A DNA stretch of 64,000 nt from Gammaproteobacteria bacterium (lineage in GTDB: Bacteria; Pseudomonadota; Gammaproteobacteria; SZUA-140): assembly GCA_021648525.1 (NCBI GenBank), contig JAKISP010000010.1, positions 5,695-69,694 of the forward strand, in the 5' to 3' direction. A program made the position numbers and the translations under genes. The notes beneath the pieces are model-generated. The model searched no databases and was not told the DNA's origin. It saw only the letters and a list, made by a program, of their open reading frames with translations. Positions 26,708 through 52,951 of this stretch are shown in pieces. The stretch's first letter is position 1, and each line of letters begins with the position of its first letter.

Positions 26708-26834
26708 TGCCTGAAAGAGATAAGATTGATTGGGAAAAACCTGCAAGTAAAGCGCGGCAATAATTACTGTGGTTATTTTACAACGGTAAACGATAAGTTT
26801 TTTAGTGGGAAATATTGTTTTTTTGTTCTAACCG

Positions 26835-26910: not shown

Positions 26911-26920
26911 GGGTGTCATA

Positions 26921-28030: not shown

Positions 28031-28216
28031 GTAAAGCGAGGGTGGAAATCGGATGGCGATGGTTGCTATTGGTTCGTGAATTTCTGTAAACTGCATCAGT
28101 TTTTCCTGGCGCTGGTTTTGAGGCTATATCGAGTCGTCGTTGCTGAATATGATTTCTTTATGCTGTTGCCATTGAAGCGTGATGGCGTCTATTTTTTGAA
28201 TAAGAGGGTCAATAGA

Positions 28217-29519: not shown

Positions 29520-30359
29520 ATGACAAGACGTGGTGGGAGAGCTCGTTTAATCGGGCATTTGCTGGGGGGCGTTTTGGTGGGCATGTTATTGCCTGCTATG
29601 AGTGCTGTTGCCGGCGTCTACAACACCAAACACAATCTTGGCAGTAGCGGCCTGAATGCGGCCAGTAATTTTAGTGGTACAGAAGAGATCTGTGTCTTTT
29701 GCCATACCCCGCATGGTGGTGATGCGTCGGCGGCGGTACCCATCTGGAATCGTCAGCTGGATGCGGGCGGTTTTCAAACCTATGATCAGATGGGGACCAC
29801 CACGCTAGATGCGAATGTTGAGCCGATAGGCTCTGTCTCCATTGCCTGCCTCTCCTGTCATGATGGCTCACAGGCGATGGATGCAGTCATTAATGAGCCA
29901 GGTTCGCTGGCTGATAACCCCTCTTTTTCTGCGGGTGACTGGAGCGGCCAGGCGGCGGCAGTTCAGGGGCGAATTGGGCCGGTTGATGTGGTGACAAATT
30001 TAGGTAAGGATCTAACGAACGACCACCCTGTCGGGATTCAATATGCAGGTGGCGGCTATTCAGAGAGCTACCCGGAGGGGCGACCAAGAGTCGATATTGA
30101 CTTTAATCCGCCAACCTCAGAAGTGCTGAGTACGGGGCGGGTGTGGTGGGTAGATAGCCGTGAGCATCCCGAGTCTTCTTTTAGTAAACGAGATTTAAAG
30201 CTTTATTCTCGCGTAGGGACACGCGGTACCAATGTTGGTGAGCTGCAGCCTTATGTGGAATGTGCATCGTGTCATGATCCGCATGTGGACTACAATCCGA
30301 CCTTTTTAAGGATTGACCCCGCTGGAAGCGCGGTTTGCCTGACTTGTCACGCGAAGTAA
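29520..30359 (+). CDS. tetraheme c-type cytochrome with doubled-CXXCH domains (paired_CXXCH family)
   Basis: It has a GGGGGAG RBS and a signal peptide. It has 4 CXXCH motifs (CVFCHTPH, CLSCHDG, CASCHDPH, CLTCHAK). The CHDPH...FLR...CxxCH spacing matches the doubled-CXXCH motif. Confidence 0.8.
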   Translation: MTRRGGRARLIGHLLGGVLVGMLLPAMSAVAGVYNTKHNLGSSGLNAASNFSGTEEICVFCHTPHGGDASAAVPIWNRQLDAGGFQTYDQMGTTTLDANVEPIGSVSIACLSCHDGSQAMDAVINEPGSLADNPSFSAGDWSGQAAAVQGRIGPVDVVTNLGKDLTNDHPVGIQYAGGGYSESYPEGRPRVDIDFNPPTSEVLSTGRVWWVDSREHPESSFSKRDLKLYSRVGTRGTNVGELQPYVECASCHDPHVDYNPTFLRIDPAGSAVCLTCHAK

Positions 30360-31361
30360 GTGATGGTGATGAAGTTGACTGCGCTGTGGATGCTACTGGG
30401 TTTAATGGCTGTGCCAGCCCTGGCCGAGCAAGTGGTGCTTGAACAGCGCCAGTCGGCGCTTGCTGCGGATGTATTTGCGGTGGTGGACGGAAAGGTCATT
30501 ACACAGCAGACATTTGATACCTTTTTGCACGTGGGAAAACGACAGCGGTTTTACCATGGTGATATCCCTGAAGCGGAAGAGGCTGCATTTCGAAAGGAGG
30601 TGGCGCAGCGCTTGATTGATCAGGTGTTGATGCGCTCCGCGGTGAAAGAAAGAGGGGTAGTAGCAGAGCCAGAGCAGGTGAAGGTTCAGTTGGCGGCCAT
30701 TGAGGCGCGCTATGAGTCGCGGCCGCATTGGCGGGCACAGCGAGAAGGATTCCTTGCAGAGTTATTGCCGCAGGTGGAAGAACAGAGTCAGTTCGAGCAG
30801 CTTGAGACGCAGGTGCGGAACGTGGTTGAGGTGAGTGAAACGGCGGTGGTGGCCTATTATCAGGCCAATTCCGAACAATTTACGACGCCGGAGCGACTGC
30901 GTGTTTCGCTGATTTTGTTAGGTGTCGAACCCTGGGCGCAGGCAGCCCAGTGGCAGGCGGCAATGGATGAGGGTGAGCGCTTAATTAAGCGACTGCGACA
31001 GGGCGGAGATTTTGCAGAGATGGCTCGCTTGCATTCAAGTGATGGCTCAGGGCTTAAAGGCGGTGATTTAGGTTACGTTCACAAAGGAATGTTGGCGGAA
31101 GAGGCGCAGCAGGTGCTGGATAAAATGATGCCGGGGGAGGTGTCGTCTGCCATTCGTTTGCTGAAAGGTGTCGCGATATTCAGGGTTGATGAGCGGGTTT
31201 CACCGGTGTTGAATCTGTTTGAACGGGTTGCACCACGCGCACGCGATTTGTATGTGCGTGAGCAGAGCGAAAAGAACTGGCGTGAGTTTATGAGTGAGAT
31301 GCGCAGTAGTGCGGATGTACAGGTAAGAGATCCGTTGCTGTTACCAATTAGCGATGAGTAG
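30360..31361 (+). CDS. periplasmic PpiC-type peptidyl-prolyl cis-trans isomerase (parvulin; SurA/PpiD-like chaperone)
   Basis: It has a signal peptide and a parvulin domain (SLILLGVEPW...GGDFAEMARLHSSDGSGLKGGDLGYVHKGMLAEEAQ). Confidence 0.7.
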   Translation: MMVMKLTALWMLLGLMAVPALAEQVVLEQRQSALAADVFAVVDGKVITQQTFDTFLHVGKRQRFYHGDIPEAEEAAFRKEVAQRLIDQVLMRSAVKERGVVAEPEQVKVQLAAIEARYESRPHWRAQREGFLAELLPQVEEQSQFEQLETQVRNVVEVSETAVVAYYQANSEQFTTPERLRVSLILLGVEPWAQAAQWQAAMDEGERLIKRLRQGGDFAEMARLHSSDGSGLKGGDLGYVHKGMLAEEAQQVLDKMMPGEVSSAIRLLKGVAIFRVDERVSPVLNLFERVAPRARDLYVREQSEKNWREFMSEMRSSADVQVRDPLLLPISDE

Positions 31362-31422
31362 TAGGGGGTTGTTCTGATTATCATGCGGTCGTTGCAAGTC
31401 GTATTTGTGACGTTAGATCAAT

Positions 31423-33231: not shown

Positions 33232-33284
33232 CAGGCGTTGTAGGCCTCATATAATAAGAGTAAATTACGAGGAGAGAGTTTGAT

Positions 33285-33722
33285 ATGTCATCTAAGATCA
33301 AGCGTAATGTGTTGAAATCGATGATCATAGGGGTATTAGCGTATATGGGGGCTCTGGGGGCCCCGCAGCCTGCGCAAGCAGAGTATGCTGATATCGTGAT
33401 CAATAACTATGCTGATGCAGCAGGAATGCGCCCTGCCGTTTTTCCGCATTGGTTCCACCGAATTCGTTTCCGTTGCAAGGTTTGTCATACAGACCTGGGT
33501 TTTGCGTTTAAAGCGGGTGGTAATAAAATCGATATGGCTAAAATTATCGATGGCAAGTTCTGCGGAGCCTGTCATAACGGTGAAATTTCATGGTCGGTAG
33601 AAAACTGTGCCATGTGCCATTCCGGGATACCGGGGCAACCAACCCATTTTCACGGCAGTACGGTGCAGCGTCTGATCGCCCCGGCGTATAAGCCACTTCA
33701 AGCCAACGACGCTAAGAAATAA
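33285..33722 (+). CDS. periplasmic triheme cytochrome c7/c3-type (PpcA-like)
   Basis: It is 145 aa with a signal peptide. Heme 1 is FPHWFHRIRFRCKVCH, as in c7 cytochromes, plus CGACHNG and CAMCHSG. Confidence 0.75.
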   Translation: MSSKIKRNVLKSMIIGVLAYMGALGAPQPAQAEYADIVINNYADAAGMRPAVFPHWFHRIRFRCKVCHTDLGFAFKAGGNKIDMAKIIDGKFCGACHNGEISWSVENCAMCHSGIPGQPTHFHGSTVQRLIAPAYKPLQANDAKK

Positions 33723-33736
33723 GAGGAAGGCAAGCA

Positions 33737-34408
33737 ATGAATCATAAAACTAAAGCTGTTTCCTTATCTCTGGCGATGCTGGTGTCTGCCTTTGCGTGGA
33801 ATGCGCAGAGCCATGCAGATGAAGCGACCGGGGTGAAACAATCACCATTGATGTTGGCTGAGGTTTCGTCTGCCAACACCTTTAACGTTAACTTGAAGAA
33901 GCCTAAATCACGCAATCTTCCGCCTGCGGAAGACGGCATTCATGATCCAGAAAATGAAGCAACTCACTCGTTGCAGCATCCACTTGATGCCTATAAAGGG
34001 CTGCCAACAAGTGAATTTGGTAACTATGTTGACTGGGTGAAGGCGCTTGATGAGGGTAAATTGCGTCCGCGTTGGGATCGTTCCGATCCAAACGAAGAGC
34101 CATTTGTGCTCGATCTTGATATTGTACGTCCAGTGAAGGCGTCTGTGCCTGATGTGGTTTTTCCACATCGTCAGCACACCGAGTGGCTTTACTGCTCAAA
34201 TTGCCATCCTGCAATCTTTATTCCTCAGAAGAATGCGAATCAGATCAGTATGTCCGCAATTCTTCTGGGTCAAAAATGTGGCGTCTGCCACGGAAAGGTT
34301 TCTTTTCCAATTGAGACCAAAACCTGTCGTAAGTGTCATTCTAAGCCTAAACCGGCTGGTTGGACGCCTCCTTTGAGTGAAGCAACACTGAAGAATCCCT
34401 GGAAATAA
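33737..34408 (+). CDS. periplasmic c7-type triheme cytochrome with an ~120-aa N-terminal extension (paralog A)
   Basis: It has a signal peptide. It has a DGIHDP motif in the extension. The c7 module is VVFPHRQHTEWLYCSNCHP...IPQK...CGVCHGKVSFP...CRKCH. Confidence 0.75.
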   Translation: MNHKTKAVSLSLAMLVSAFAWNAQSHADEATGVKQSPLMLAEVSSANTFNVNLKKPKSRNLPPAEDGIHDPENEATHSLQHPLDAYKGLPTSEFGNYVDWVKALDEGKLRPRWDRSDPNEEPFVLDLDIVRPVKASVPDVVFPHRQHTEWLYCSNCHPAIFIPQKNANQISMSAILLGQKCGVCHGKVSFPIETKTCRKCHSKPKPAGWTPPLSEATLKNPWK

Positions 34409-34542
34409 CCGACACATTAATCAGAGCTATAGCATATTCTAAGGATTGATAATTAACGCCGGACGAACTCTTCGCCCGGCGTTCCCTATAATGTGTTTCA
34501 GGCAAGATTAATTGTTCAGTTAATTTTAAGGAAGTTGAAACC

Positions 34543-35874: not shown

Positions 35875-35875
35875 C

Positions 35876-36526
35876 ATGACGCAAGCTATGAGCGAACGAT
35901 CACAAAAAATGCTGCCAATGAATGGTTGGTGGTGTGTGCTCGTGCTGATGGCCTGTTTTTGTTTTAGTACGTCGAGCCATGCGGCTGAGTCAGCGTTTAC
36001 GGATGCTGCTAACCCTTCGGAACCAGGCATCACGGCCGTCTGGTCTCGCGGCCTGCATTTTCAGACTGAAGGTGAAGTGGTGCCACTGGCTGAAGATGGT
36101 ATTCACGATCCTACTAATGATGCGGTCAAATTGTTACAGGAACCCTATGAAGCGATGGCTGAATTTCCACGGGATTCTCAGGGCATCATTGACTGGGTGC
36201 AGACACTACGCCAGGGATTGATTGATCCGCGGATGAGCCTGACTGGTGAAGAAGAGATGTTTCCGGTCGATTTTGATATTATTTTTAAAAATACGGGTTC
36301 AATGCCTCATGTCCGCTTTCCGCATTTAGAACATACTGAGTGGCTGACCTGTGCTAACTGTCATCCATTGATCTTTATTCCTCAAAAAGGCGGAAATCCT
36401 GTCTCCATGTCGGCAATTATTCAGGGTGAATATTGCGGTGTGTGTCATGGTAAGGTCGCCTTTCCACCAACGATGAATTGCGGCCGATGTCACTCCGTTC
36501 CAAATCAAGCCAACTTGCGGCGCTAA
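35876..36526 (+). CDS. periplasmic c7-type triheme cytochrome with an N-terminal extension (paralog B of 33737..34408)
   Basis: It has the same architecture as paralog A. It has LAEDGIHDPTND and the c7 module VRFPHLEHTEWLTCANCHP...IPQK...CGVCHGKVAFP...CGRCH. Confidence 0.75.
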   Translation: MTQAMSERSQKMLPMNGWWCVLVLMACFCFSTSSHAAESAFTDAANPSEPGITAVWSRGLHFQTEGEVVPLAEDGIHDPTNDAVKLLQEPYEAMAEFPRDSQGIIDWVQTLRQGLIDPRMSLTGEEEMFPVDFDIIFKNTGSMPHVRFPHLEHTEWLTCANCHPLIFIPQKGGNPVSMSAIIQGEYCGVCHGKVAFPPTMNCGRCHSVPNQANLRR

Positions 36527-37746
36527 TCGCACTGACATCCTCCCTTCTAATTGGGGGGTGTTCAATGCTGTCAAAAGACCCGGCTTCGAGCGCCACTCAT
36601 GCATCAGTGCAACAGTCACTCTATGGCTGGCGAGAGATTGAAGGTGGGGTCGAGTCAGCATGGACAGATAATTCGGCTTTATCAGCTATTACTGGTCAGC
36701 GATACGTTCGTTTTGTTCGGCCGGTGCAGGTGGCGGCGCGCGGAAACTTTGTCTTTGTTGTTGATGCTGGCCCAGAATTGCTTTATCGCTATGATCTTAG
36801 CCGTAATGAGTTGAAGGTTGTATTGAATCTCAAGGGGGTTATGGCTGGTGAAGTCACGGATCTTTATGTCTACCCGGATCACTCATTTCTCCTGGTAGAC
36901 CCTGATTCCGCACGTGTGCTGCACTTTAGTCGCAATGGGCGTCTAATTCGTATTTTCCAGGATGGTTTAAATCTGATTCGCCCTGTTGCTGTCACCTATG
37001 ACGAGGAGATGGGGCGCGTATTGATTGCCGATGGCTCCAGTGATGACGTGCTGGTGTTTTCTACAACAGGGCAATTACAGGGCGTGATTGGCACACGTGG
37101 TGTTCAGGAAGGGCAGTTTTTAAATATTACGGCGATGACTTCTGGCGCTGACGGTATTTATGTCACGGCACGCCTTGGTCATCGATTACAGGTAATGGGG
37201 CGTGATGGTTCACATGTGAAATCATTTCAGTCTGATGCAGTGGTGTTTCCGTTGGCTGTTGCAGTCGATAGAAGCGGCAATACATTTGTGAGTGACTATC
37301 TTGATAACTCGATTAAGGTTTTTCAGGATGGCCTGTTTCTTGAGAGTATTGCTGGATCTGGTTTTTCACCTGGTCGTTTTAAGCGGATTAGCGACTTGTG
37401 GTACGACGAAGGTTTTCTCTATGCTGTCGATAGCCTTAACGGGCGGATTCAGGTATTAAGAGTTGAGGTGATTGAACCTGAAATAGAAACGTTTGTTGAA
37501 GATGAAATTGACCTGGAAACAGCACCTCCTGCAGCTGCTGAGGTGTTACCGTTAGGGGAGCCAGGTGAAGAGCTGGAACTGGAAACTGCGCAGAATGAAC
37601 TGGAGGAATTGCAGGAGGAACTTGAAGCTGCTCGCTTAGAATTAGACGCTGAAGCTGACAGGCAGCCGGCCGAAGCCCCGCTTACTTCCGAGCCTCTTCC
37701 TGTTGAACCTGGTCAAGTGATTGATTCACCTGGTAGCGAAATTTAG
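36478..37746 (+). CDS. NHL-repeat beta-propeller lipoprotein with an acidic C-terminal tail
   Basis: It has a lipobox (LLIGGC). Multiple NHL-like blades are present (VFVVDAG...LYRYD, VLIADGSSDDVLVF, IYVTARLGHRLQV, TFVSDYLDNSIKVF, LYAVDSLNGRIQVL). The C-terminus is an E/L-rich acidic tail. Confidence 0.65.
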   Translation: MRPMSLRSKSSQLAALIALTSSLLIGGCSMLSKDPASSATHASVQQSLYGWREIEGGVESAWTDNSALSAITGQRYVRFVRPVQVAARGNFVFVVDAGPELLYRYDLSRNELKVVLNLKGVMAGEVTDLYVYPDHSFLLVDPDSARVLHFSRNGRLIRIFQDGLNLIRPVAVTYDEEMGRVLIADGSSDDVLVFSTTGQLQGVIGTRGVQEGQFLNITAMTSGADGIYVTARLGHRLQVMGRDGSHVKSFQSDAVVFPLAVAVDRSGNTFVSDYLDNSIKVFQDGLFLESIAGSGFSPGRFKRISDLWYDEGFLYAVDSLNGRIQVLRVEVIEPEIETFVEDEIDLETAPPAAAEVLPLGEPGEELELETAQNELEELQEELEAARLELDAEADRQPAEAPLTSEPLPVEPGQVIDSPGSEI

Positions 37747-37760
37747 AAATAAACATAATC

Positions 37761-38837
37761 ATGATGCTTAACTCTCGCCAAGGGCTGGTTGTGCTGTTAT
37801 GCCTGATTTTTTCAGGCTGCGCCTCCGCACCTGCTGTTCTGAAATATGACCTTGAAGAGGCGGCTGGGACAGTCTGGCCAGCCACCCCGGAGGTGGCACG
37901 TTATCAATACGTGGGGCAGCTAACCGGTGAAGAAAATTTCATCCATTCGAGTGATGATGTCTCAATGGGGCGTAAGGTTTTTGAATGGATTGTGGGTGTT
38001 GTGACCGGAGAAGAAGCCCCAACGGTTTTACAGCGTCCGCAATCTGGTACGGTAGATCGCGATGGACGTATTTATGTCACGGATGTGAGTCGTGCGGCAG
38101 TATATGTGTTTGATGGGCAAGGCGGTCGACTGGATGTGTGGGAGATGGCGGGTGAGGCGTTGCGATTTAAAACACCGATCGGCATAGCGGTGGTTGAAAA
38201 AGCGGAAGGTGTACGTGAAATTCTGGTCGTTGATGCGGATCTTAAACGTGTGGTGGTACTAGATCAGAAAGGTATCCCGCAGCGCCACTTTGGTAGTGAT
38301 GTATTGACGCGGCCAACTGGACTGGCGCGGGATCCAGAGAGCGGCCAGCTCTATGTGGCGGATACTCACGGGCATGACATCAAGGTGTTTAGCGCAGATG
38401 GTGTATTGCTTAAAACGCTTGGAGTCAGTGCGAGGGGAGAAGGTCCGGGGCAATTTAACTCACCTACTCATCTTACTTTTGCGGCTGGCCAACTGTATGT
38501 GACCGATACACTTAATTCACGAGTGAAGATTTTTAGCGCGGATGGAGAGCTTGTGCGTATTTTTGGACGGCGCGGGATTTTTGTGGGTGACCTGCCGCGC
38601 CCCAAAGGGCTGGCGGTTGATAAAGACGGCAATATCTATGTGGTGGAATCCTATTATGATCATCTGTTAGTATTCAATGGTGAAGGGAACCTGCTTTTGC
38701 CGATTGGCGGCTCGGGTAGCGGCGTAGGGCAGTTTTACCTGCCCGCAGGTGTCTGGACTGACCACCGTGACAGGATATATGTGGCTGATAGTTTCAATGG
38801 TCGGGTCGTGATATTACAATATTTGGGGGGGGCATGA
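37761..38837 (+). CDS. NHL-repeat six-bladed beta-propeller lipoprotein
   Basis: It has a lipobox (IFSGCAS). It has six NHL blades (RIYVTDVSRAAVYVFD, LYVADTHGHDIKVF, LYVTDTLNSRVKIF, IYVVESYYDHLLVF, IYVADSFNGRVVIL...). Confidence 0.7.
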   Translation: MMLNSRQGLVVLLCLIFSGCASAPAVLKYDLEEAAGTVWPATPEVARYQYVGQLTGEENFIHSSDDVSMGRKVFEWIVGVVTGEEAPTVLQRPQSGTVDRDGRIYVTDVSRAAVYVFDGQGGRLDVWEMAGEALRFKTPIGIAVVEKAEGVREILVVDADLKRVVVLDQKGIPQRHFGSDVLTRPTGLARDPESGQLYVADTHGHDIKVFSADGVLLKTLGVSARGEGPGQFNSPTHLTFAAGQLYVTDTLNSRVKIFSADGELVRIFGRRGIFVGDLPRPKGLAVDKDGNIYVVESYYDHLLVFNGEGNLLLPIGGSGSGVGQFYLPAGVWTDHRDRIYVADSFNGRVVILQYLGGA

Positions 38838-41509
38838 GAGGTCATTTTACAGGCACGTTATTGATCCTGTTTGCTGTTGTATCAATGGCAGAGTCAGCTT
38901 ATGCTGCACGCATCTCAGATATCGCGAACACAAAACATAACTTTTCGGCGACAGTTCCACCGAGTGAGACGTCTCGTACGGTTCAGGCAGTCTCTGAATC
39001 TCAAATTTGTGCGTTTTGCCATACACCGCATGGGGCGACTAACGAAGCGCGTACGCCACTTTGGAATCGCACGCTTTCGACCGCAACTTATGCACCCTAC
39101 AACTCAAGCTCGTTGGATGCAATAGATCTGGGGCAGCCAGAGGGAAAGTCTAAACTCTGTTTGTCATGCCATGACGGTACGCTGGCGATCGGATCTGTTA
39201 ATGTATTAAATCGGGTAGAACTCAAAAAAGAGGGACGTGACATTCCTTTTCAGGGGACACGCCCTGATGGCAGTATTCCAGATGGACATGGTGAGTCAAC
39301 TGGATTTACGCGCCGCATTGGTGTCGACTTAACCAATGATCACCCGATTTCATTTACTTTTGATAGTGCTCAGGCCGCGCGTGATGGTGAGCTCTATAAC
39401 CCAGAAGTTGAATTGCATATTAGAGAACGTTCGCCAGGAAGCGGCCCGCCTTTCCCGCAGTCACAACATACAGGTGTAGCGGGTTATTTACCGTTGGAAG
39501 ATGGCCAGGTGGAGTGTATCACCTGTCATGACCCGCATATTCGTTCAGATGATCCGAACGAAGGTAACATTAAATTCTTACGTGTTAACCGAATGCAACG
39601 CCACGCGGAGCCTGTTGACGGTCAGTTTAATGCGGACAACGATATTATCTGTATTTCTTGCCATGATAAAGAAGGATGGGTTGGGTCTGCGCATGCTAAT
39701 CGTCTCGCGGCAGATGAAACTTATCAACTGCCTGCTGGTAATCTACGCGAATTCCCGCGAGATACTCAGGTGTGGCAAGCGGCATGTTTGAATTGTCATG
39801 ACCCGCACACGGTTGAAGGTTCACGCCGGATTTTACGTGAGGGAACCGATGGGCCGACCAGGATTGATCCCGTGACCGGCGGTAAGTTTAAACAGGGCGG
39901 TAATCACGCAATTGAAGAAGTCTGTTTTGCCTGCCACTCACCCGATGGTGATGTGTTAGTTGGGCAGGGTAGTGTTGGTTTCCAGGTGCCGGATGTTAAG
40001 ACTGATTTTGTGACACCAGGCAACACCCATATGCCACTGCAGAGTGCAGATCAACGCGCTGGTCGTGAAGTGCATTCGATTGGTAGCGGCAGAGATGGTG
40101 TGGAAGGAAAAACGCGAGGCCAGGATTTTGTTGAATCCCCAGAGATGATGGGTAAGGGGAATTTGATGAATCGTCACGTAGAATGTACCGACTGCCATAA
40201 TCCTCATCGTGTCGCTAAAAATCGCATGTTCAATGCAAACAACGCGATTCCAGATGTAGAGGGTACGCATCCACATACACCCACTGATATTGCGGCTAAT
40301 GGTTTAACCATGCACACCAACCTTGCTTCAGGGGTGTTAAGGGGGATTACTGGCGTTGAGCCTGTGTATGGATCCACTGCTTTTGGTAGCGAGCCTGTGA
40401 GTTTTACCCTTAAACGTGGAGACCCCGGAACGGGTGGGAGTACTGAGGTTGGCGCCCCTTATGTCACGCGTGAATATCAAGTCTGTCTTAAGTGTCATTC
40501 AAACTATACTTACGATACACCGCCCCCTTTAGGTTTGCACGGTGGGAGTACCGCGCCGGGTACGAATGCGATGTTTGAATACACCAATCAGGCGATGGAG
40601 TATCAAGCGCCTCCTTCCCATATGGGCGAGGTGAGTTCATTTCCAGCACCGGGATGGGGGCCATTTGTTGGTGTCGATGGCGAGGGAAACAGCGTTGATT
40701 TTGAAAATAACAATCATCGCTCATGGCACCCTGTGATGGATAGAACTGGACGTACTGCGACAGAACGGCTTGCCGACCCTGATGTCTGGCGTTCACCGTT
40801 TAATATCCCTGGCGCATTAGGGGAGCAAACGATGTACTGCACCGACTGCCACGGCAATAACACCGCGAGTGATACCGTTATTCCAAATGGTGGCGTTAAT
40901 GGTGAAGTCTGGGGGCCTCATGGCTCGCAAAATAATTTTCTATTAAAAGGACCCTGGGATGATAATACCGGGCGGCAGCAGCCTGAGGGGCTGTGTTTCA
41001 GGTGTCACGAATTTGATCAATATGGCCGAGACTCAGGAATCGCGACCTCCTTAACCCCGCCCGTGCTTGCTAGTGGATTTAAAGTAATCAATAACGTGGC
41101 TTTTGGTTGTATTAATTTTAAGCTGGTTAATCTGCACATTGGACATAATAAATCCATTGCCCCGGGCGTGACTAATTTCCGTTGCACGCTTTGTCATATT
41201 GCGGTGCCTCATGGTTGGAAAAATAAAGTATTCCTCGCGAATCTAAATGATGTTGGGCTAGAGGCGAGCCTCGCGCCTGGCACGCAGGTGAGATATTTAG
41301 GGTTTGCGGGTAATACGAATAAAGCGAATGGAACCGGACGCTACTACGCTGGCCCGTACTACAATGGTGCCGCATTAAAAGTCAATACCTTTTCACGCAG
41401 TGGCGCCTGGCTTGAGACAGGTTGTGGCTCATCTGGAAACCCTGGTAATGGTGAACTTGGGTTTGGCTGGATGACGAGTCTTGACGAAACATGCGCATCA
41501 TTACCATAA
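38834..41509 (+). CDS. large multiheme c-type cytochrome (891 aa, 11 CXXCH), doubled-CXXCH family, candidate outer-membrane or extracellular cytochrome
   Basis: Its start overlaps the NHL gene stop (ATGA). It has a signal peptide. There are 11 CXXCH motifs (CAFCHTPH, CLSCHDG, CITCHDPH, CISCHDK, CLNCHDPH, CFACHSPD, CTDCHNPH, CLKCHSN, CTDCHGNN, CFRCHEF, CTLCHIA). The N-terminal module TKHNFS...ICAFCHTPHG...PLWNR parallels the tetraheme protein at 29520. Confidence 0.8.
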   Translation: MRGHFTGTLLILFAVVSMAESAYAARISDIANTKHNFSATVPPSETSRTVQAVSESQICAFCHTPHGATNEARTPLWNRTLSTATYAPYNSSSLDAIDLGQPEGKSKLCLSCHDGTLAIGSVNVLNRVELKKEGRDIPFQGTRPDGSIPDGHGESTGFTRRIGVDLTNDHPISFTFDSAQAARDGELYNPEVELHIRERSPGSGPPFPQSQHTGVAGYLPLEDGQVECITCHDPHIRSDDPNEGNIKFLRVNRMQRHAEPVDGQFNADNDIICISCHDKEGWVGSAHANRLAADETYQLPAGNLREFPRDTQVWQAACLNCHDPHTVEGSRRILREGTDGPTRIDPVTGGKFKQGGNHAIEEVCFACHSPDGDVLVGQGSVGFQVPDVKTDFVTPGNTHMPLQSADQRAGREVHSIGSGRDGVEGKTRGQDFVESPEMMGKGNLMNRHVECTDCHNPHRVAKNRMFNANNAIPDVEGTHPHTPTDIAANGLTMHTNLASGVLRGITGVEPVYGSTAFGSEPVSFTLKRGDPGTGGSTEVGAPYVTREYQVCLKCHSNYTYDTPPPLGLHGGSTAPGTNAMFEYTNQAMEYQAPPSHMGEVSSFPAPGWGPFVGVDGEGNSVDFENNNHRSWHPVMDRTGRTATERLADPDVWRSPFNIPGALGEQTMYCTDCHGNNTASDTVIPNGGVNGEVWGPHGSQNNFLLKGPWDDNTGRQQPEGLCFRCHEFDQYGRDSGIATSLTPPVLASGFKVINNVAFGCINFKLVNLHIGHNKSIAPGVTNFRCTLCHIAVPHGWKNKVFLANLNDVGLEASLAPGTQVRYLGFAGNTNKANGTGRYYAGPYYNGAALKVNTFSRSGAWLETGCGSSGNPGNGELGFGWMTSLDETCASLP

Positions 41510-42543
41510 GCGGAGTGCTGCGCCGTCTGGCATCAACAAAGCTAACATTATTATGGATGTTACTGTTAGCCGTTGGTGCAGCGCTGAGTTACGATAATCC
41601 TGAGGATACTTCGATCTGGGTCTTGATCGTACCGATGTCACTGCTGGCGCTTAACCTGATCGCTGCAATTATCAGTAACCCCCGCATCAATCGACGTGGC
41701 GGTCTGCTAGTATTCCATCTGGGCTTGTTAAGTATTGTTGTGCTGGCTGCGATTGGTCGCCTGACCCATATGGATGGACGTGTTGAAATTATCTCTGGCG
41801 CTGAGTTCTCACCTGAAATAGTCACCGATATACATAGCGGTCCGCTGCATAGCGGTGCACTGGCTGATGTGAATTTTGTACAGGGGCCATTTACAGTTGA
41901 GTATCGTCCTCAGATGATGCGAGGCCTTACCTATAGTCAGGTTGCCCTGCCTGATAATAAAGGTGGGTGGCGAGAAGCAGTGGTGGGTGATGACCGCCCG
42001 CTCCTGGTTGAGGGATACCGTTTCTATACCACTTTCAATAAAGGGTTCGCGCCAATATTAAGCTGGACGAGTCATGATGGACGGGTGGCTGAAACTGGCG
42101 CTGTTCATATGCCCTCATACCCCTTGTTTGATTTTAAACAGTCAAATAGCTGGACACCTCAGGGAGGCGATGAAATTAAATTCTGGTTGCAGTTAGAAAC
42201 CGGCCTTACCACTGAAGAGGCGTGGGTGCTCGATGGACGACGTGCGACAGGTACGCTGGTAGTTAATGTATCGGGTGAACGTACGGAATTATTACCGGGA
42301 GAGAGTGTCAAAATGGCGGGTGGTACATTACGTTACGAGCAGCTTACGACCTGGATGGGCTACAAATTATTTTATGACCCCACATTACAGTGGATGTTTC
42401 TCGCCGCATTTATCACGATTGCTGGGCTTGCCGCCCATTTTTGGCAAAAACTGGCGGCAGAACCACTGGGACTGGATGATGCGCTACGACATGAAAAACA
42501 GCATGCAAAAGGATCGGTGCCTGCATCGCGTTCGGCAGCGTAG
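41491..42543 (+). CDS. System II cytochrome c biogenesis protein ResB/Ccs1 (CcsB) family
   Basis: It has an N-terminal TM pair, a large periplasmic domain and a C-terminal TM (WMGYKLFYDPTLQWMFLAAFITIAGL). It lies immediately upstream of a CcsA/ResC gene. It is shorter (350 aa) than canonical ResB. Confidence 0.6.
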   Translation: MRIITISGVLRRLASTKLTLLWMLLLAVGAALSYDNPEDTSIWVLIVPMSLLALNLIAAIISNPRINRRGGLLVFHLGLLSIVVLAAIGRLTHMDGRVEIISGAEFSPEIVTDIHSGPLHSGALADVNFVQGPFTVEYRPQMMRGLTYSQVALPDNKGGWREAVVGDDRPLLVEGYRFYTTFNKGFAPILSWTSHDGRVAETGAVHMPSYPLFDFKQSNSWTPQGGDEIKFWLQLETGLTTEEAWVLDGRRATGTLVVNVSGERTELLPGESVKMAGGTLRYEQLTTWMGYKLFYDPTLQWMFLAAFITIAGLAAHFWQKLAAEPLGLDDALRHEKQHAKGSVPASRSAA

Positions 42544-42564
42544 CGGTGTAAGGAGATTGGAACG

Positions 42565-43425
42565 ATGACAGAATTACCATGGTTATACGCAGGCATCGCA
42601 GCCTATGCATTTGCAGCTATCGCAGCGCTGGTGGGTGTGGCACGATTAGGCACAACGATGGCGACTGTTGGCGGGGTCAGTAGCGTCAGTGAAAGCCAGC
42701 GCAATAATGAAAGACTGGTGCTTTTATTGATGACCACGAGTGTGATTTTACTGACGATCACGCTAGCTGATCGCTGGCTGCGCATTGGCCATGGCCCGTT
42801 TGTAAACCTGTTTGAGTTATTAATCAGCCAGCTCTTTAGCCTTGGTCTGGTTTATACCATCGCTTACTGGCGCATCCCTGTATTGCGTACCACATCCGTG
42901 GTGGTGTTGCCGCTGATGGGTGTGTTAGCTGTGTGGGTCATGGTGCTTGAACCGTCAGATAGTGTATTCCCGCCCACTTATCACAACCCATGGCTATGGG
43001 CACATGTTGGCTTTGGTAAATTTTTCCTCGCCTTTTGTTTAATCGGCACCGGGTTAGCTGGCGTGATCTTACTACGTAGTTATGGCTTTTTTAAAAACCT
43101 GTTTCGTCATCTGCCTGATAATGTCATCCTCGATAAACTGGCGTGGCGATTTATGTTGCTTGCGCTGGTGTTTGATAGCCTGATGTTATGTGCCGGTGCG
43201 GTTTGGGCACAGGATGCATGGGGACGCTACTGGGCATGGGATGCGCTGGAAACATCATCATTCCTTAACTGGCTGCTATTAGGTGCCTCAATACATGCGC
43301 GCACAACCTATAATGTTCCTATCCGGTTAGGTGCAGTTCTGATTATCAGTGTTCTTGTTTTTGCATTTGTCACCTACTTTGGCACCCCTTTCTATAGCGA
43401 AGCGGCACACAAAGGGGTGATATAG
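42565..43425 (+). CDS. cytochrome c-type biogenesis protein CcsA/ResC (heme-handling WWD-domain protein)
   Basis: It is 286 aa with multiple TM helices. It has the Trp-rich WWD motif WGRYWAWDALETSSFLNWLLL and conserved His residues. Confidence 0.8.
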   Translation: MTELPWLYAGIAAYAFAAIAALVGVARLGTTMATVGGVSSVSESQRNNERLVLLLMTTSVILLTITLADRWLRIGHGPFVNLFELLISQLFSLGLVYTIAYWRIPVLRTTSVVVLPLMGVLAVWVMVLEPSDSVFPPTYHNPWLWAHVGFGKFFLAFCLIGTGLAGVILLRSYGFFKNLFRHLPDNVILDKLAWRFMLLALVFDSLMLCAGAVWAQDAWGRYWAWDALETSSFLNWLLLGASIHARTTYNVPIRLGAVLIISVLVFAFVTYFGTPFYSEAAHKGVI

Positions 43426-43433
43426 CGGAGTAG

Positions 43434-44219
43434 ATGGTGGACGTGGATAAGAAAAAAAATAGTAATGAAACGATAGTTACAACCCTTTCACTGTTAATGG
43501 TTGGAATTGTCAGTGCTGCGATTGTGATGTTGATGATGCAGGACGACCCAGGCAAGACGGGGGCATCAATCACACTGGAAGCACTACAGGGATCATCGGT
43601 CGCTCAACTACCCCCGCCCCCCGTAAATAACGCAATGTCTTCGGTCGAAATAGCAATACCCGCACTACAAACGCCAGTGCCGCAAGTGGCCGCACCTCAA
43701 ACAGAAGAAGCGAAACGCATGGCTGAAATAACCACGCGTTTTGAACAGGCGGTGGTGATGCTACATGCCAGACAATATGAACATGCCGCAACCGCACTGC
43801 ATCGAGTGATGACATTGGCGCCCAGAATGCCTGAAGTCTATGTGAATATGGGGTATGCAAAGTTAGGCCAGGCATTACCCAATGAAGCGCTGGTCTTTTT
43901 TGAAACTGCGACACAGCTAAAACCAGAGCAGGCGAATGCCTACTGGGGAATGGCTGTTGCGCTGGAAAATAGTGGTGACCTTGCGGGTGCTTTAGGTGCG
44001 ATGCGTACTTTCCTGCACCTCTCATCCGGTGATGACAACTTCGCACGACGCGCACGCTCAGCACTGTGGGAGTGGGAAGAGGCACTCGCTCGCGGGCCGT
44101 TGCCGGAAGAAGAAAAAGAATTTCTTGAACGTGGGGCGTTGCAGTGGGAATCTCGCAATACGCCGCGTGATGATGCCGATAGTGGAGAGCAAACACTACA
44201 GGTGCAACCGCTTCAATAA
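43434..44219 (+). CDS. membrane-anchored TPR-repeat protein (CcmI/NrfG-like apocytochrome chaperone candidate)
   Basis: It has an N-terminal TM helix, then a Pro-rich linker. It has TPR-like repeats (YEHAATALHRVMTLAP, EVYVNMGYAKLGQ, ANAYWGMAVALENSGDLAGA). Confidence 0.55.
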   Translation: MVDVDKKKNSNETIVTTLSLLMVGIVSAAIVMLMMQDDPGKTGASITLEALQGSSVAQLPPPPVNNAMSSVEIAIPALQTPVPQVAAPQTEEAKRMAEITTRFEQAVVMLHARQYEHAATALHRVMTLAPRMPEVYVNMGYAKLGQALPNEALVFFETATQLKPEQANAYWGMAVALENSGDLAGALGAMRTFLHLSSGDDNFARRARSALWEWEEALARGPLPEEEKEFLERGALQWESRNTPRDDADSGEQTLQVQPLQ

Positions 44220-44233
44220 TAGAGTACTACTGA

Positions 44234-44884
44234 ATGAAACACCTGACGACAATATTATTAACGCTTATGTTTGTAGGCTTTGCTGCTCAGGCAACCGCTG
44301 CACCGTTGCAGCCGTCCTTTCAAAAGGATCGGCACTATAAAGAAATTAATGGCGCACAATCGACTTACCAGGGTGAGAAGGTCGAAGTGCTGGAGCTGTT
44401 ATGGTACGGTTGTCAAACCTGTTATGTCATCCAGGAGGGCCTTGAAAATTGGCTGGCAGGCACGGGTAAAGTAATTAATTACCGTCGTATGCCTGCAGTC
44501 GTACACGATAATATGATGCTGCTAGCGCGAGCCTTTTATGCGGCTGAAGTGTTAGGGATCATGAGTAAAATACATAAACCGCTATTTTCTGCGATTCATG
44601 AATCGCGTCGCCAGCTGATAACAGAAGCGGCCGTAGCCGAATTTTTTGCTGAGCAAGGCGTTGCAGAAAAAGACTTTACACGCGCGTTGAATAGCGCATA
44701 CGTCAATGGAAAAATTCGACGTTCACGGATGATGAGTCAACGCTATGGGATCCAGGGAGCGCCATCGATTATCGTTGATAGTCGGTATCTGGTTGATCCT
44801 TCCCTGGTGCGTAGTCCAGAAGAATTTATTGATGTGGTTGATTTTCTGGTGAATAAAGTCAGGATGACTGTAAGAGAAAAGTGA
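44234..44884 (+). CDS. DsbA-family periplasmic thiol:disulfide oxidoreductase (CQTC active site)
   Basis: It has a signal peptide. Its thioredoxin-fold active site is LWYGCQTCY. It has a DsbA-like helical insertion and the C-terminal cis-Pro region GAPSIIVD. Confidence 0.65.
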   Translation: MKHLTTILLTLMFVGFAAQATAAPLQPSFQKDRHYKEINGAQSTYQGEKVEVLELLWYGCQTCYVIQEGLENWLAGTGKVINYRRMPAVVHDNMMLLARAFYAAEVLGIMSKIHKPLFSAIHESRRQLITEAAVAEFFAEQGVAEKDFTRALNSAYVNGKIRRSRMMSQRYGIQGAPSIIVDSRYLVDPSLVRSPEEFIDVVDFLVNKVRMTVREK

Positions 44885-45071
44885 CCTTGTTCTGAGACGA
44901 AGCGCTTATTAATTTACAAAAGTGTTATCGAAATATCCTTACTCACAGAGAAAAAGAGCGACCACCGATCCCGCCTGGCCAGGCCGCAACCGGTGATGCC
45001 TCTGAAGAACGCCCTGATTGATCATATGCATTTTTTCTAAAGTCGATACTTTTCTATCCGATATTGAAATT

Positions 45072-46925
45072 ATGAGAAAAAACAATCGGAAAAGCGAAGA
45101 GGTGAAGCCGCGGGTTGTATTGCAATATAATGCGTTTGACCGTATTTGTGGCATCCACCCCTTCAAATCCGCAGTTCCTGATGGCTTTGTTGAGTATGCA
45201 GTGAAGACTCGTAGTGGCGGCGAGGTGTTCTATTTTAATTTTGAACTGGCCCTGGAGATGGGGCTTCTATCTGAAAATAATCCTCAATCGTTAAATAAAA
45301 AATTAAGCCAAAAGCTGCTTGATACTTTTAGTATCGAAATAATTAATGAATATGAGATCGAAAATGGTGCACAGGTTCCTGTTGCTGATATTCGTTCTGA
45401 AAAATATATGGCGACGCGTTATCTACAGCTTCAACATCCAGGTCGATCAGGTTTGACCTCTGGCGATGGTCGTAGTTTATGGAATGGCTGTTTTACTGGA
45501 AAAGGAGTGACGTGGGATATTTCAAGTTGTGGTACCGGTGTTACCTGCTTAAGTCCGGCGGCTGCACATGAAGGGCGAAACGTTAAAACGGGTGATAAGA
45601 ATGTATCGTATGGCAGTGGCCGTGGTGATCTACTTGATGGCGTTGGTGCCGCGTTGATGAGTGATATTTTTCACCGCAGTAAGATTGCCACTGAACGTAC
45701 CCTGTTATTAATTGGTTATCCTGATGGCACCTCGGTGAATGTACGTGCTGCAAAGAATCTTTTAAGGCCTGCTCACTTCTTTCATCATTTAAAGCAAGGT
45801 CAGTATGAGCGATTAAAAGGGGCGGTTGATTACTATATTGATCGACAGGTTAGCAATGGTGAATGGCCAGTAGTACGAGGTGATGCACGTTATGCAGCAA
45901 TGCTTGATCATGTGGCGAGATTATTTGGCAAGATGGCTGCTCGTCTGGAAAGTGATTATATTTTTTGCTGGATGGACTGGGATGGCGATAATATTCTGTG
46001 TGATGGCGGGATTATTGATTATGGTTCTCTGCGTCAATTTGGTCTGTTTCATCATGAGTATCGTTACGATGATGCAGAACGTATGTCTACTTCAATTACG
46101 GAGCAGAAAAATAAAGCAAAATATATTATTCAAACCTTTGCACAGCTCATTGATTATTTGATTTTTGGTAACAAAAGGCCGATTAAATTATTTGCTAAGT
46201 CTTCTGCCGTTAAGCTGTTTCTTGATGTGTTTTCACAGACGAAAAATGAGTTGTTACTGAACAAAATGGGGTTCACTGATAAAGCTGTACAGTTATTTTT
46301 ACTCGATAAAAAAAATATTGGTGTGATTGAGGAATTTAGTCGTGTTTATTCAACATTTGAGCGGACTAAATCTATTCGTGGGCTTTATGCTGTGGGTGAT
46401 GGTGTCAGTTGGGACGCGGTATTTTGTATGCGAGATATCCTTCGTGAATTGCCCGCCTGGTATCAGGCAGATGGTGACTGGATGACAGCAGAAAGTTTTG
46501 TTCAGATTATGCGTTCAGATTATGCTGAAGAGAAAGATGTTGAAATATCATCATACCGACGACGGCAGGTGCGCTGTTTTCAGCGCCTGTACTGGCGGAT
46601 TGTGGAGAGCGTCGCTTCACTTTCCGCCCAGACTGAAGATGAGTTGATTGATGATATAGTGCTGCGTTCGGCGGTGATCAATCGATATGAACGTGTGACG
46701 GGTGATGCCTTAATTTATGTTGCGAAGCAGCTAATTAAGCTGAATAGCAGCGTCAGTAAAAATGTCCTGCACCAGATGTTTGAGGGGTTTGTTGGGCAGC
46801 AGGTGTTGATCCCCGGTAAGCTAACACCATTTCCATTGCCACACCCGGCAGGCAAGCCAACCACTGCATATTCCGGATATCAAAAACTATTTAAGGTCAT
46901 TCGGGAGTGTCGAGAAGGTATTTAA
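45072..46925 (+). CDS. SelO/YdiU-family protein (protein adenylyltransferase-like pseudokinase fold), divergent
   Basis: There are blocks alignable to E. coli YdiU. [9 protein letters not shown] matches [40 protein letters not shown] matches [40 protein letters not shown] matches [37 protein letters not shown] matches [20 protein letters not shown]. Confidence 0.5.
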   Translation: [617 protein letters not shown]

Positions 46926-52691: not shown

Positions 52692-52951
52692 ATGCGGGCT
52701 ACTGCTATCTAAGTGTTTGAATTTTCGTTGTTATTTTTATTATTTATGACGCCGTTCTCAGTGCGCTCCAGGGAGTATCCCACGCTGTAAATACTGTGTT
52801 ACGATTGTGTAACTATAGGTTAATTAATAGATTTCCGTCTAGTAGGGGATTAATAAAACCACATGCGTGAGGCCGGCGGAAGGAAGGCCTGCGTTATCGT
52901 GATCTGTCCAGCAGCCTACAAAATTCGGGTATCGCTGTGAAGGGGGAAGCA

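Follow-up and report, generated by a model that had tools for sequence, protein, structure and literature searches.

The DNA analyzed here (a stretch of 64 kb, referred to as the window) carries a complete uetABCDEFGHIJ cluster at positions 29520-41509 with a four-gene module at its end (Table 1). The module consists of four tightly packed ORFs at 41491-44884, all on the + strand and directly 3' of the 11-heme cytochrome gene uetJ, exactly where a sequence-only reading of this DNA had placed them. Gaps between successive module genes are 21, 8 and 14 nt, and the ATG of the ResB gene (41491) precedes the uetJ stop codon (41507-41509), giving a 19 nt overlap. There is an alternative in-frame GTG start at 41515, and coupling to uetJ is tight in both cases. 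The ORFs, the Pfam matches and the overlap bear out the claim of the sequence-only reading that four co-oriented genes for ResB, CcsA, TPR and DsbA-fold proteins follow and overlap the 11-heme gene, and that System II (CcsB/CcsA-type) genes and their TPR and DsbA-fold companions are physically tied to a multiheme cluster.

Table 1. Genes of the uet cluster and the adjoining module, in window coordinates
Gene	Product	Position	Strand	Basis
uetA	tetraheme c-type cytochrome, signal peptide	29520..30359	+	Paired_CXXCH_1, E 2.5e-12; 4 CXXCH; order matches UetA (Tenderiales)
uetB	SurA-like peptidyl-prolyl isomerase	30360..31361	+	Pfam Rotamase, SurA_N; order matches UetB
uetC	putative outer-membrane beta-barrel, 602 aa	31423..33231	+	position relative to published cluster
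uetD	small c7-type triheme cytochrome, 145 aa	33285..33722	+	CKVCH, CGACH, CAMCH in translation
uetE	c7-type triheme cytochrome	33737..34408	+	Pfam Cytochrome_C7; NCBIfam nanowire_3heme TIGR04257
uetF	putative cupredoxin-like protein (per bioRxiv 10.1101/2022.05.06.490989), 443 aa	34543..35874	+	conserved synteny
uetG	c7-type triheme cytochrome	35876..36526	+	Pfam Cytochrome_C7; TIGR04257
uetH	NHL-repeat beta-propeller, lipoprotein-like N-terminus	36478..37746	+	weak NHL and DUF5128 matches; synteny
uetI	NHL-repeat beta-propeller	37761..38837	+	Pfam NHL, E 3.9e-26
uetJ	undecaheme extracellular cytochrome, 891 aa, 11 CXXCH	38834..41509	+	motif count
ResB/CcsB	System II cytochrome c synthase subunit, 350 aa	41491..42543	+	Pfam ResB; homologue lengths; AF2; Foldseek
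CcsA	CcsA subunit, 286 aa, WWD domain	42565..43425	+	Pfam PF01578; histidine alignment
TPR	membrane-anchored periplasmic TPR protein, 261 aa, putative apocytochrome adaptor/chaperone	43434..44219	+	TPR Pfam matches
DsbA paralog	DsbA-fold paralog, 216 aa, CQTC, signal peptide, retained cis-Pro loop (GAP)	44234..44884	+	Pfam DSBA

The Tenderiales, including 'Ca. Tenderia electrophaga', carry the arrangement uetABCDEFGHIJ-ccsAB-nrfG-batABD, with uet standing for undecaheme electron transfer (bioRxiv 10.1101/2022.05.06.490989). Common to that cluster and the one in the window are the tetraheme cytochrome, the PPIase, the barrel, three c7 trihemes, UetF, two NHL propellers and the undecaheme cytochrome, followed by ResB/CcsB, CcsA and the TPR protein in that order. 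The two differ past the TPR gene, where the window has the DsbA paralog and then a SelO-like gene in place of batABD. Its CcsA is only ~61% identical to the versions in Tenderia MAGs; by CcsA comparison the nearest to the window's lineage is the hydrothermal MAG SZUA-128 (94%). The cluster has also been reported in Gallionella (PMC10734462) and Leptothrix (PMC13386937). The module is therefore real and coherent, yet mostly not new, and belongs to the described uet electron-uptake cluster: the 2022 uet paper had described ccsAB and the TPR gene as conserved members of it and proposed that they mature the Uet cytochromes alongside System I (bioRxiv 10.1101/2022.05.06.490989).

Within the cluster, UetC was not matched by any family in a Pfam search, nor UetF by any in Pfam and NCBIfam searches; uetC is collinear in related loci at 36-96% identity. 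The ORF overview used a cut of 150 aa, below which uetD falls. A motif scan found no atypical heme motif in the cluster, with all 24 sites being canonical CXXCH. Those of UetJ begin at residues 59, 109, 228, 273, 318, 364, 451, 551, 669, 721 and 784, at least 45 residues apart, so the closely spaced doubled CXXCH units that had been offered as the rationale for a special maturation system did not hold up. All 22 heme cysteines of UetJ are conserved among 63 homologues, as is, in 100% of them, a C-terminal cysteine pair (C864/C887). This invariant pair is apparently new. No CcdA/DsbD reductant supply was found in the uet cluster. Neither the GC content of the region, which shows no anomaly, nor its flanks, which consist of core genes, point to the horizontal origin suggested by the sequence-only reading.

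The ResB and CcsA subunits

The ResB ORF was matched by the Pfam ResB family (PF05140, E 4e-12, 46 bits, cutoff 24.6) only over positions 150-449 of the 486-position model, and the sequence-only reading had allowed that it might be a fragment of a disrupted gene. This was ruled out: 120 homologues range from 324 to 393 aa, making the short length a family trait, the AF2 model is complete (pLDDT 84), with four TM helices and a beta-rich periplasmic domain, and a Foldseek search of that model against the PDB gave CcsBA (7S9Y) as the top match (E 1.6e-5, probability 1.00). His76, which is a transmembrane histidine, and His316 are invariant in the family alignment.

CcsA was matched by Cytochrom_C_asm (PF01578, E 1.5e-21), and the WGRYWAWD motif of its WWD domain lies at residues 219-226 (nt 43219-43242). 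Alignment by phmmer to the CcsBA protein of H. hepaticus placed H147, H244 and H282 on H761, H858 and H897, respectively. All three are invariant across the family, H147 and H282 being the periplasmic histidines that flank the WWD domain and H244 the transmembrane histidine. By these features, the ResB-like protein and CcsA were shown to hold the parts of a predicted split CcsBA-type (System II) holocytochrome c synthase. Because CcsA scores 100.5 bits on TIGR03144, below the cutoff of 187.6, it is not of the standard housekeeping type, and the ResB/CcsA pair is a divergent paralog family.

The pair thus shares with canonical System II (CcsBA 7S9Y; ResBC/CcsB-CcsA) the WWD domain, P-His1, P-His2 and TM-His2, the ResB Pfam domain, the fold of the B subunit and the split two-gene arrangement. 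Unlike the canonical systems with their CcdA/DsbD and ResA/CcsX components, the module has a CcsA far under the TIGR03144 cutoff, a short ResB, a redox partner of DsbA fold where they have a ResA/CcsX-type thioredoxin, no neighboring CcdA/DsbD, and a dedicated TPR subunit. We know of no canonical System II with such a subunit. With a System II core and a TPR partner, the architecture is mixed.

Linkage to UetJ and coexistence with System I

The order UetC-E-F-G-H-I-J-ResB-CcsA-TPR is kept in nearly all of the 80 related genome loci compared, and since the module order recurs there and in distant metagenomic relatives, it is far beyond chance. A UetJ-like cytochrome, a short ResB, CcsA and the TPR protein are kept together down to 40-44% CcsA identity, including in a Myxococcota MAG that has the four (its cytochrome with 11 hemes) without the other uet genes. 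Among representatives at this identity, only L087 breaks the adjacency, with ~4 kb between its ResB and CcsA. At 34% CcsA identity, the representative combines a short ResB and CcsA with a cytochrome of 7 hemes, and no TPR gene adjoins them. In the reverse test, with loci picked by UetJ alone, both ResB and CcsA were present in 39 of 54 assessable loci (and in all of those with at least 53% UetJ identity), a ResB-like gene was present in 9 more, and 6 were without the module within 6 kb. These comparisons show that the ResB/CcsA family travels with UetJ-like undecaheme cytochromes. The linkage is not absolute: ResB-CcsA-TPR follows UetI with UetJ missing at four loci (L071, L072, L075 and L080), and at five others the module is present with no uet genes upstream (L069, L070, L076, L078 and L079).

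Nine metagenome loci have a ResB-like gene after UetJ but no CcsA, as might be expected had the pair lost synthase activity and served only to export heme or to store it for the periplasm or cell surface. CcsBA proteins reportedly export heme (Frawley and Kranz, 2009). Against this, neither the WWD motif nor any of the heme-ligand histidines that attachment requires varies, and the genes as a rule adjoin those for c-type cytochromes, leaving this explanation extremely improbable.

No ccm (System I) genes were found within the 64-kb window. Several relatives have a full ccm operon and the System II set on one contig: CcmC, CcmE and CcmF scored above their NCBIfam cutoffs 3-6 kb downstream in L071, L072, L074, L076 and L078, the same ccm motifs were detected in L075 by pattern scan only, and L022 and L025 have a partial CcmC at their ends. 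System I occurs in most genomes carrying the uet cluster, and the same coexistence is seen in Tenderiales (bioRxiv 10.1101/2022.05.06.490989). The lack of ccm genes in the window, together with substrate motifs that any general system could manage, would also fit a module that is the organism's only general-purpose System II and adjoins the cytochrome cluster by chance. We consider this very unlikely given that CcsA falls well under the housekeeping cutoff, inheritance of the synthase family follows that of UetJ-like genes across phyla, the module is without the reducing arm (CcdA/ResA) that a general System II has, and System I is present both on the same contigs in relatives and, according to the literature, in most carriers. 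Given System I in relatives and in most carriers, a dedicated second synthase beside it is the best reading. The proposal of a private System II set in the sequence-only reading is supported in part, its rationale of closely spaced CXXCH units excepted.

The TPR and DsbA-fold proteins

Near its N-terminus, after a Lys-rich start, the TPR protein carries a hydrophobic anchor (about residues 15-35). An alignment of 24 members shows that the anchor is kept along with ~3 TPR repeats and the motifs NAYWG and GAMRTYxHL, and the gene is placed after that for CcsA in almost every locus. The protein and its 23 homologues were matched by generic TPR models only, with no NrfG/CcmI model among the matches listed. 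The membrane-anchored TPR protein of the sequence-only reading was accordingly confirmed, and its label 'NrfG/CcmI-like' holds as an analogy only, there being no specific sequence relation to these proteins.

The last ORF of the module was matched by Pfam DSBA (PF01323, E 1.5e-12), and its best PDB match was DsbA 4K2D, a CPHC DsbA (E 8e-36). It shares with classical DsbA, the CPHC periplasmic dithiol oxidase, the fold with its helical insertion, the cis-Pro loop and the signal peptide. It differs in having CQTC (residues 60-63, nt 44411-44422), in reaching only 61 of the 290 bits required by the DsbA equivalog model, and in its fixed place after the uet TPR gene. The XX dipeptide of the active site sets the redox potential of DsbA, so with CQTC for CPHC the redox role of the paralog may differ. 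A DsbA partner that is a cluster-specific paralog with C[QRKE]TC in place of CPHC is apparently new, as is its replacement in another clade by a TlpA-like CxPC lipoprotein in the slot after the TPR gene.

Is the DsbA-like gene part of the maturation set at all? Both the published cluster and the Tenderia-like clade lack it, the latter having no thiol-redox gene after the TPR gene; the UetJ cysteine pair is conserved with or without it, and no terminator or promoter signals decisively separate or join it. A thiol-redox partner is therefore either dispensable or supplied from elsewhere in that clade, and the gene could be an unrelated neighbor or the cell's general DsbA. This is doubtful, because the gene begins 14 nt past the TPR gene, every C[QRKE]TC orthologue examined lies directly 3' of a TPR gene, and CPHC, kept by the next relatives of these paralogs and by all more distant ones, has been lost from the active site. 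In addition, the slot is taken by a non-homologous thioredoxin-fold protein both in the clade with the lipoprotein and in L087.

Possible roles in Uet cytochrome maturation

Dedicated lyases provide precedents for a second synthase that is encoded beside its client cytochrome while a general system is also present. They are NrfI and CcsA1 of W. succinogenes (System II) and NrfEFG of E. coli and SirEFG of S. oneidensis (System I type), the lyase genes of the last two being accompanied by those for the TPR-type chaperones NrfG and SirG (PMC6976685). Their sites are atypical (CXXCK, CX15CH and CX12NKGCH; PMC6976685), in contrast to the 24 of 24 CXXCH sites here. The characterized dedicated lyases all serve atypical motifs (PMC6976685). 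Counting against a special synthase, no such motif is present here to explain the need for one.

That absence would also suit a synthase that is not substrate-specific and acts as portable 'insurance' or a capacity booster, so that the 24-heme load matures in any host. The module was seen in Gammaproteobacteria and in a Myxococcota MAG, and the literature adds Betaproteobacteria; it lies beside ccm instead of uet in some genomes, and co-transfer of maturation systems with EET modules is cited in the uet paper (bioRxiv 10.1101/2022.05.06.490989). The conserved TPR partner with its family-specific invariant motifs and the tight translational coupling to uetJ point instead to a specific client. 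We therefore regard the portable role as unlikely, although the two readings are not mutually exclusive.

In the preferred reading, the four genes are probably the maturation arm that ends the complete uetABCDEFGHIJ cluster, a private System II for its cytochromes. Alongside the general System I of the cell, the ResB/CcsA pair would export heme and attach it to the CXXCH motifs of Sec-exported Uet apocytochromes, chiefly UetJ. The TPR protein would serve as a substrate adaptor or chaperone delivering apocytochrome to the synthase, in a role analogous, not homologous, to that of CcmI, NrfG and SirG. For the same substrate, the DsbA paralog would supply thiol-disulfide chemistry: it could introduce the C864-C887 disulfide into UetJ or set the redox state of the cysteines in the CXXCH motifs. 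The spread of the module to other phyla suggests old transfers.

The four-gene set at the 3' end of the uet cluster

The feature belongs to the known undecaheme electron transfer (uet) cluster with its known ccsBA-TPR arm, from a SZUA-128-like lineage, and does not represent a novel type of system. Upstream of the maturation module, ten genes encode a tetraheme cytochrome, a SurA-like PPIase, a 602-aa protein, three c7-type triheme cytochromes, a 443-aa protein, two NHL propellers and an undecaheme cytochrome; family searches with the 602-aa and 443-aa proteins gave no match. Their order is that of uetA-J, UetJ carries 11 CXXCH motifs, and the set is collinear with 80 related loci, including those of Ca. 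Tenderia MAGs. The ccsAB and TPR genes lie immediately 3' of uetJ, as in uet clusters of the Tenderiales type. Since uetA-J with ccsAB-TPR has already been published with this proposed role (bioRxiv 10.1101/2022.05.06.490989), the central idea of the sequence-only reading, a System II cytochrome c maturation set dedicated to the cluster, is already in the literature, as a hypothesis. The four ORFs named in that reading were recovered at exactly the same coordinates, all on the forward strand (see table). They are tightly packed: the uetJ stop codon reaches past the ResB ATG, giving a 19-nt overlap, and the gaps between the four module genes are 21, 8 and 14 nt. The small uetD ORF is easily overlooked under a length cut; counting it, the window holds all ten uet genes.

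Features of the module, the uet cluster and their surroundings (positions in the window)
Feature	Position	Strand	Description
ResB/CcsB-like protein	41491-42543	+	350 aa; Pfam ResB PF05140, 46.1 bits (cutoff 24.6)
CcsA	42565-43425	+	286 aa; Pfam PF01578, 77.4 bits (cutoff 29.9)
TPR protein	43434-44219	+	261 aa; N-terminal hydrophobic anchor
DsbA-fold protein	44234-44884	+	216 aa; CQTC at residues 60-63; Pfam DSBA PF01323
uetJ	38834-41509	+	undecaheme cytochrome, 11 CXXCH
UetJ C-terminal Cys motif	41423-41506	+	residues 864-891
UetJ C759 region	41108-41146	+	third non-heme cysteine
uetA	29520-30359	+	tetraheme cytochrome
uetD	33285-33722	+	c7-type triheme cytochrome, 145 aa
SelO-like gene	45018-46925		635 aa; TTG start uncertain
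Porin gene	28076-29329		classical porin, just upstream of uetA
331- and 351-aa ORFs	25655-27976		no Pfam match; precede the porin gene
744-aa ORF	52937-55171		no Pfam match
VWA-domain protein	4396-6240	-	distant from the uet cluster
VWA-domain protein and adjoining 489-aa protein	3015-6240	-	489-aa protein without family match

Outside these genes the window carries ordinary chromosomal genes (trpEGDC, rpe, gph, birA, coaX, crp, coq7 and those of a cus-like efflux system), and no ccm, ccdA or dsbD genes were found in its 64 kb. Downstream of the TPR gene are the DsbA paralog, then a SelO-like gene, a small ORF that is putatively GIY-YIG-like, judging by its translation, and a PAS histidine kinase. 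The batABD adhesion genes are absent after the TPR gene in the window; a BatD/VWA gene follows the DsbA gene in the related loci L089 to L093. The match of the SelO-like protein to SelO (protein adenylyltransferase/pseudokinase) is weak (E 1e-5), and the gene is kept only in the closest relative, L001 (90%). A promoter and terminator scan for the operon end returned nothing exceeding shuffled expectation. GC skew is positive in all 2-kb bins of the window (1-64000) and the forward strand holds most genes, which would fit a position of the entire window on one replichore's leading strand.

Sequence and structural features of the module proteins

The WWD motif of CcsA, WGRYWAWD, occupies residues 219-226 and is kept across all 80 related loci. 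Aligned with phmmer to the Helicobacter hepaticus CcsBA structure (7S9Y), H147 falls on H761 (P-His1), H244 on H858 (TM-His2) and H282 on H897 (P-His2), and these three histidines are invariant in 19 homologs. Against TIGR03144, the model for housekeeping CcsA, the protein scores 100.5 bits, so far under the cutoff of 187.6 that it is assigned to a divergent paralog family.

The ResB/CcsB-like partner is short, and the sequence-only reading had allowed that it might be a fragment of a disrupted gene. The evidence went against a fragment: the best 120 homologs span 324-393 aa, so the small size characterizes the family and does not reflect truncation. The AlphaFold (AF2) model (pLDDT 84, pTM 0.73) has four TM helices (16-35, 43-62, 70-92 and 299-323) and a beta-rich periplasmic domain (94-295), which matches the ResB layout, in which TM helices at the N-terminus and one at the C-terminus flank a large periplasmic domain. 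With this model, the top Foldseek match in the PDB was CcsBA 7S9Y (E 1.6e-5, probability 1.00), followed by CcmF. Two histidines, H76 in the third TM helix and H316 in the last, are invariant in 26 homologs. The connection to CcsB comes only from the Pfam match and the fold search. Because searches of PDB sequences with ResB, as a single protein and as a 26-sequence profile, returned no CcsBA match and no residue-level alignment to H77, we only infer that His76 corresponds to TM-His1 of CcsBA. Judged from their sequences, ResB and CcsA together bear all the hallmarks of a CcsBA-type synthase.

The TPR gene adjoins CcsA in almost every locus compared. In an alignment of 24 family members, an N-terminal anchor precedes about three TPR repeats, and some motifs, among them NAYWG and GAMRTYxHL, are invariant. 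The sequence-only reading had called this protein NrfG/CcmI-like, and of that the architecture stands: like those chaperones, it is a periplasmic TPR protein that is anchored in the membrane and whose gene accompanies that of a heme lyase. The likeness is an architectural analogy, with no specific sequence relationship. An NCBIfam scan of the 24 members gave generic models only (MamA, PrsT, LcrH, PilW, NlpI), a PDB profile search gave generic TPR proteins only, and we therefore rejected its identification as NrfG or CcmI.

The fourth protein has the DsbA fold but differs from DsbA in its active site. It aligns over its full length with classical DsbA 4K2D (E 8e-36), and the cis-Pro loop is kept, with GAP aligned to GVP; CQTC replaces CPHC, and on the DsbA equivalog models the protein reaches 61 and 47 bits, where the cutoffs are 290 and 279. 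In a database search, C[QRKE]TC was carried by nearly all homologs as far as about 44% identity, and the hits at about 45% identity and below were classical CPHC DsbAs. Wherever the context of a C[QRKE]TC homolog was examined, the gene lay directly after a TPR gene. Among the 80 loci, a DsbA-like gene directly 3' of the TPR gene was seen in about 27, which form the clade of the window, with the motif C[QRE][TNS]C, mostly CQTC. A clade further removed (CcsA 53-62% identical) has an AhpC-TSA/Redoxin (TlpA/ResA-like) lipoprotein with CxPC in the same slot, and the still more divergent locus L087 also carries a TlpA-like CxPC lipoprotein; in the Tenderia-like clade neither a DsbA paralog nor a TlpA-like gene was found in the slot after the TPR gene. 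That two unrelated thioredoxin-fold proteins recur in one slot argues that thiol chemistry is part of the module's job. The module differs from a complete System II pathway, in that the thiol-reducing arm (CcdA/DsbD plus a ResA/CcsX thioredoxin) was not found among window ORFs of at least 150 aa and a DsbA-fold protein is present instead. This thiol-redox partner appears to be new, going beyond the published description of uet clusters.

Linkage to UetJ and coexistence with System I in relatives

A CcsA alignment scan of species-representative genomes found a relative in 185 genomes, of which 80 were examined. All 80 are MAGs, nearly all labelled Gammaproteobacteria. Among these 80 of 185, the nearest CcsA is from the hydrothermal MAG SZUA-128 (94%), and those of Ca. 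Tenderia MAGs are about 61% identical. Searches of the 80 loci with the window proteins (tblastn) showed UetC-E-F-G-H-I-J-ResB-CcsA-TPR to be collinear in nearly all loci with sufficient flanks. In an exhaustive search of representatives clustered at 50% identity, the CcsA family graded down to about 30% identity; around relatives with about 29-32% CcsA identity, the contigs were too short to show gene context. Each of five distant representatives (CcsA 34-44%) encodes CcsA, a short ResB and a multiheme cytochrome resembling UetJ, with a TPR gene in four of the five. The genes are adjacent in four; in the fifth, L087, some 4 kb separate ResB from CcsA. A Myxococcota MAG is among the five, with no other uet gene adjacent.

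Because those loci had been picked through CcsA, we also ran the reverse test on 80 metagenome loci picked by UetJ similarity only, 54 of which had at least 2.2 kb of downstream sequence and were assessed. Both ResB and CcsA were present in 39 of the 54, a ResB-like gene without a WWD protein in 9, and neither within 6 kb in 6. Where UetJ was at least 53% identical, both genes were present in every locus. Conversely, the module follows UetI without UetJ in L071, L072, L075 and L080, and has no uet genes upstream in L069, L070, L076, L078 and L079. The association of UetJ with the module is thus strong but not absolute.

Several variants of the arrangement were observed. In L135, L144, L146-L148, L150, L151, L153 and L154, a ResB-like gene (31-36% identical) comes after UetJ (about 48-50% identical) with no WWD/CcsA within 4-6 kb; in L148 it is followed by a thioredoxin-like gene in convergent orientation and by a copper P-type ATPase. 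One clade has a lactonase-type seven-bladed propeller of 715-788 aa between UetJ and ResB (L074 1319-3466, L077 6792-8963, L122 8680-11046), and in L122 a second UetJ-like cytochrome (11192-13810) follows the propeller. Genes of the formylglycine-generating enzyme family (FGE-sulfatase; L081 9391-10326, L087 3646-5516) lie within or beside the UetJ-ResB-CcsA-TPR module in distant clades, which include the Myxococcota MAG.

Since uet clusters are also known from the Betaproteobacteria Gallionella (PMC10734462) and Leptothrix (PMC13386937), the module's presence there and in the Myxococcota MAG suggests old transfers. With GC at 0.49-0.50 in the cluster and 0.43-0.52 in its flanks, there is no compositional signal of horizontal transfer, and no mobile-element genes were found at the cluster borders in the window. 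One explanation that remains for a private synthase is that it is a portable capacity module moving with the cluster.

In relatives, the module shares a contig with System I genes. CcmC, CcmE and CcmF scored above their NCBIfam cutoffs 3-6 kb 3' of the module in L071, L072, L074, L076 and L078; L075 shows the same ccm motifs by pattern scan only, unscored, and two loci of the DsbA-carrying clade, L022 and L025, have a partial CcmC at their ends. In L071, L072, L074-L076 and L078 the module and a TlpA-like gene lie directly upstream of a complete ccm operon (about 3-9 kb after CcsA), which places the two maturation systems in a single gene block. Systems I and II therefore coexist in relatives, matching the uet paper, which described System II beside System I as unusual for Gammaproteobacteria (bioRxiv 10.1101/2022.05.06.490989). 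The ResB/CcsA pair constitutes a paralog family of its own; it is inherited together with UetJ-like cytochromes and, in relatives, occurs alongside System I. To this extent the interpretation of the sequence-only reading holds: a System II set is tied to the cytochrome cluster. Its rationale, ligation of closely spaced, doubled CXXCH units, does not, because the UetJ motifs are at least 45 residues apart.

Possible client recognition by the synthase

The known dedicated lyases NrfEFG, NrfI, CcsA1 and SirEFG all serve atypical sites (PMC6976685), with client motifs such as CXXCK, CX15CH and CX12NKGCH; the proposed uet clients, in contrast, have only CXXCH. All c-type cytochrome ORFs of the window are uet members, with 24 hemes in total, and we rejected a special motif as the rationale for a private synthase given that all 24 sites are CXXCH. 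Atypical motifs (CXXCK, CX3-4CH, CX10-20CH) were sought in UetJ and its distant homologs, with none in the window proteins; the sole exception of the motif scans was an overlapping CWCFNCH string in a 7-heme protein of L084.

The other explanation that remains is client recognition via a protein feature. The uet paper describes UetJ as having no conserved feature apart from its hemes (bioRxiv 10.1101/2022.05.06.490989). We found a C-terminal motif, W..xCGSxGxPGNG...WM...C..xP, containing the non-heme cysteines C864 and C887, which are 100% conserved in 63 UetJ homologs, including ones of other phyla at about 50% identity, and in all metagenome groups. This motif might serve as a disulfide loop, as a recognition tag or as a sorting tag. 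That the cysteine pair is the client feature of the redox partner is only a suggestion, because the pair is present with or without a partner gene nearby. Likewise, a correlation of the DsbA paralog with extra cysteines in UetJ was considered and rejected, the pair being universal whatever the partner. Besides this pair, UetJ has a third non-heme cysteine, C759, located 9 and 12 residues ahead of the invariant H768 and H771; it is conserved in 90% of UetJ homologs, is missing from distant ones, and may act as a free thiol or as a heme ligand. Directly after the signal peptide, UetA and UetJ have an N-terminal motif in common (NTKHNL and NTKHNF), and the two proteins cross-match at 24-36% identity, as if UetA were a shortened UetJ.

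In the mechanism we propose, the ResB/CcsA pair would export heme and attach it to Uet apocytochromes, chiefly UetJ; the TPR protein would bring the substrate, and the DsbA paralog would handle substrate cysteines. A broader reading, which we offer tentatively and regard as somewhat doubtful, is that the module represents a distinct System II lineage. Such a lineage would combine a compact CcsB, a System-I-style membrane TPR adaptor and a lineage-variable thiol-redox partner (a C[QRKE]TC DsbA paralog or a TlpA-like CxPC lipoprotein), would have co-evolved with UetJ-type extracellular undecahemes across phyla, and would recognize its client via a protein feature and not an atypical heme motif. 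The C-terminal Cys loop of UetJ is a candidate for that feature. If true, this would be the first dedicated cytochrome c synthase made specific by client recognition and not by an unusual heme-binding site. The details that appear to be new are the CQTC DsbA paralog with its TlpA-like counterpart, the cross-phylum co-inheritance with UetJ and the invariant C-terminal Cys loop.

The module would be a naturally occurring example of a dedicated System II enzyme with ordinary CXXCH clients, which prompts one to ask how such an enzyme selects them. It also offers a clean genetic handle, because its deletion should remove Uet cytochromes only, and co-expressing the four genes is a practical route to UetJ in a heterologous host. 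The uet cluster itself is a leading candidate for electron uptake from minerals and cathodes by uncultivated chemolithoautotrophs.
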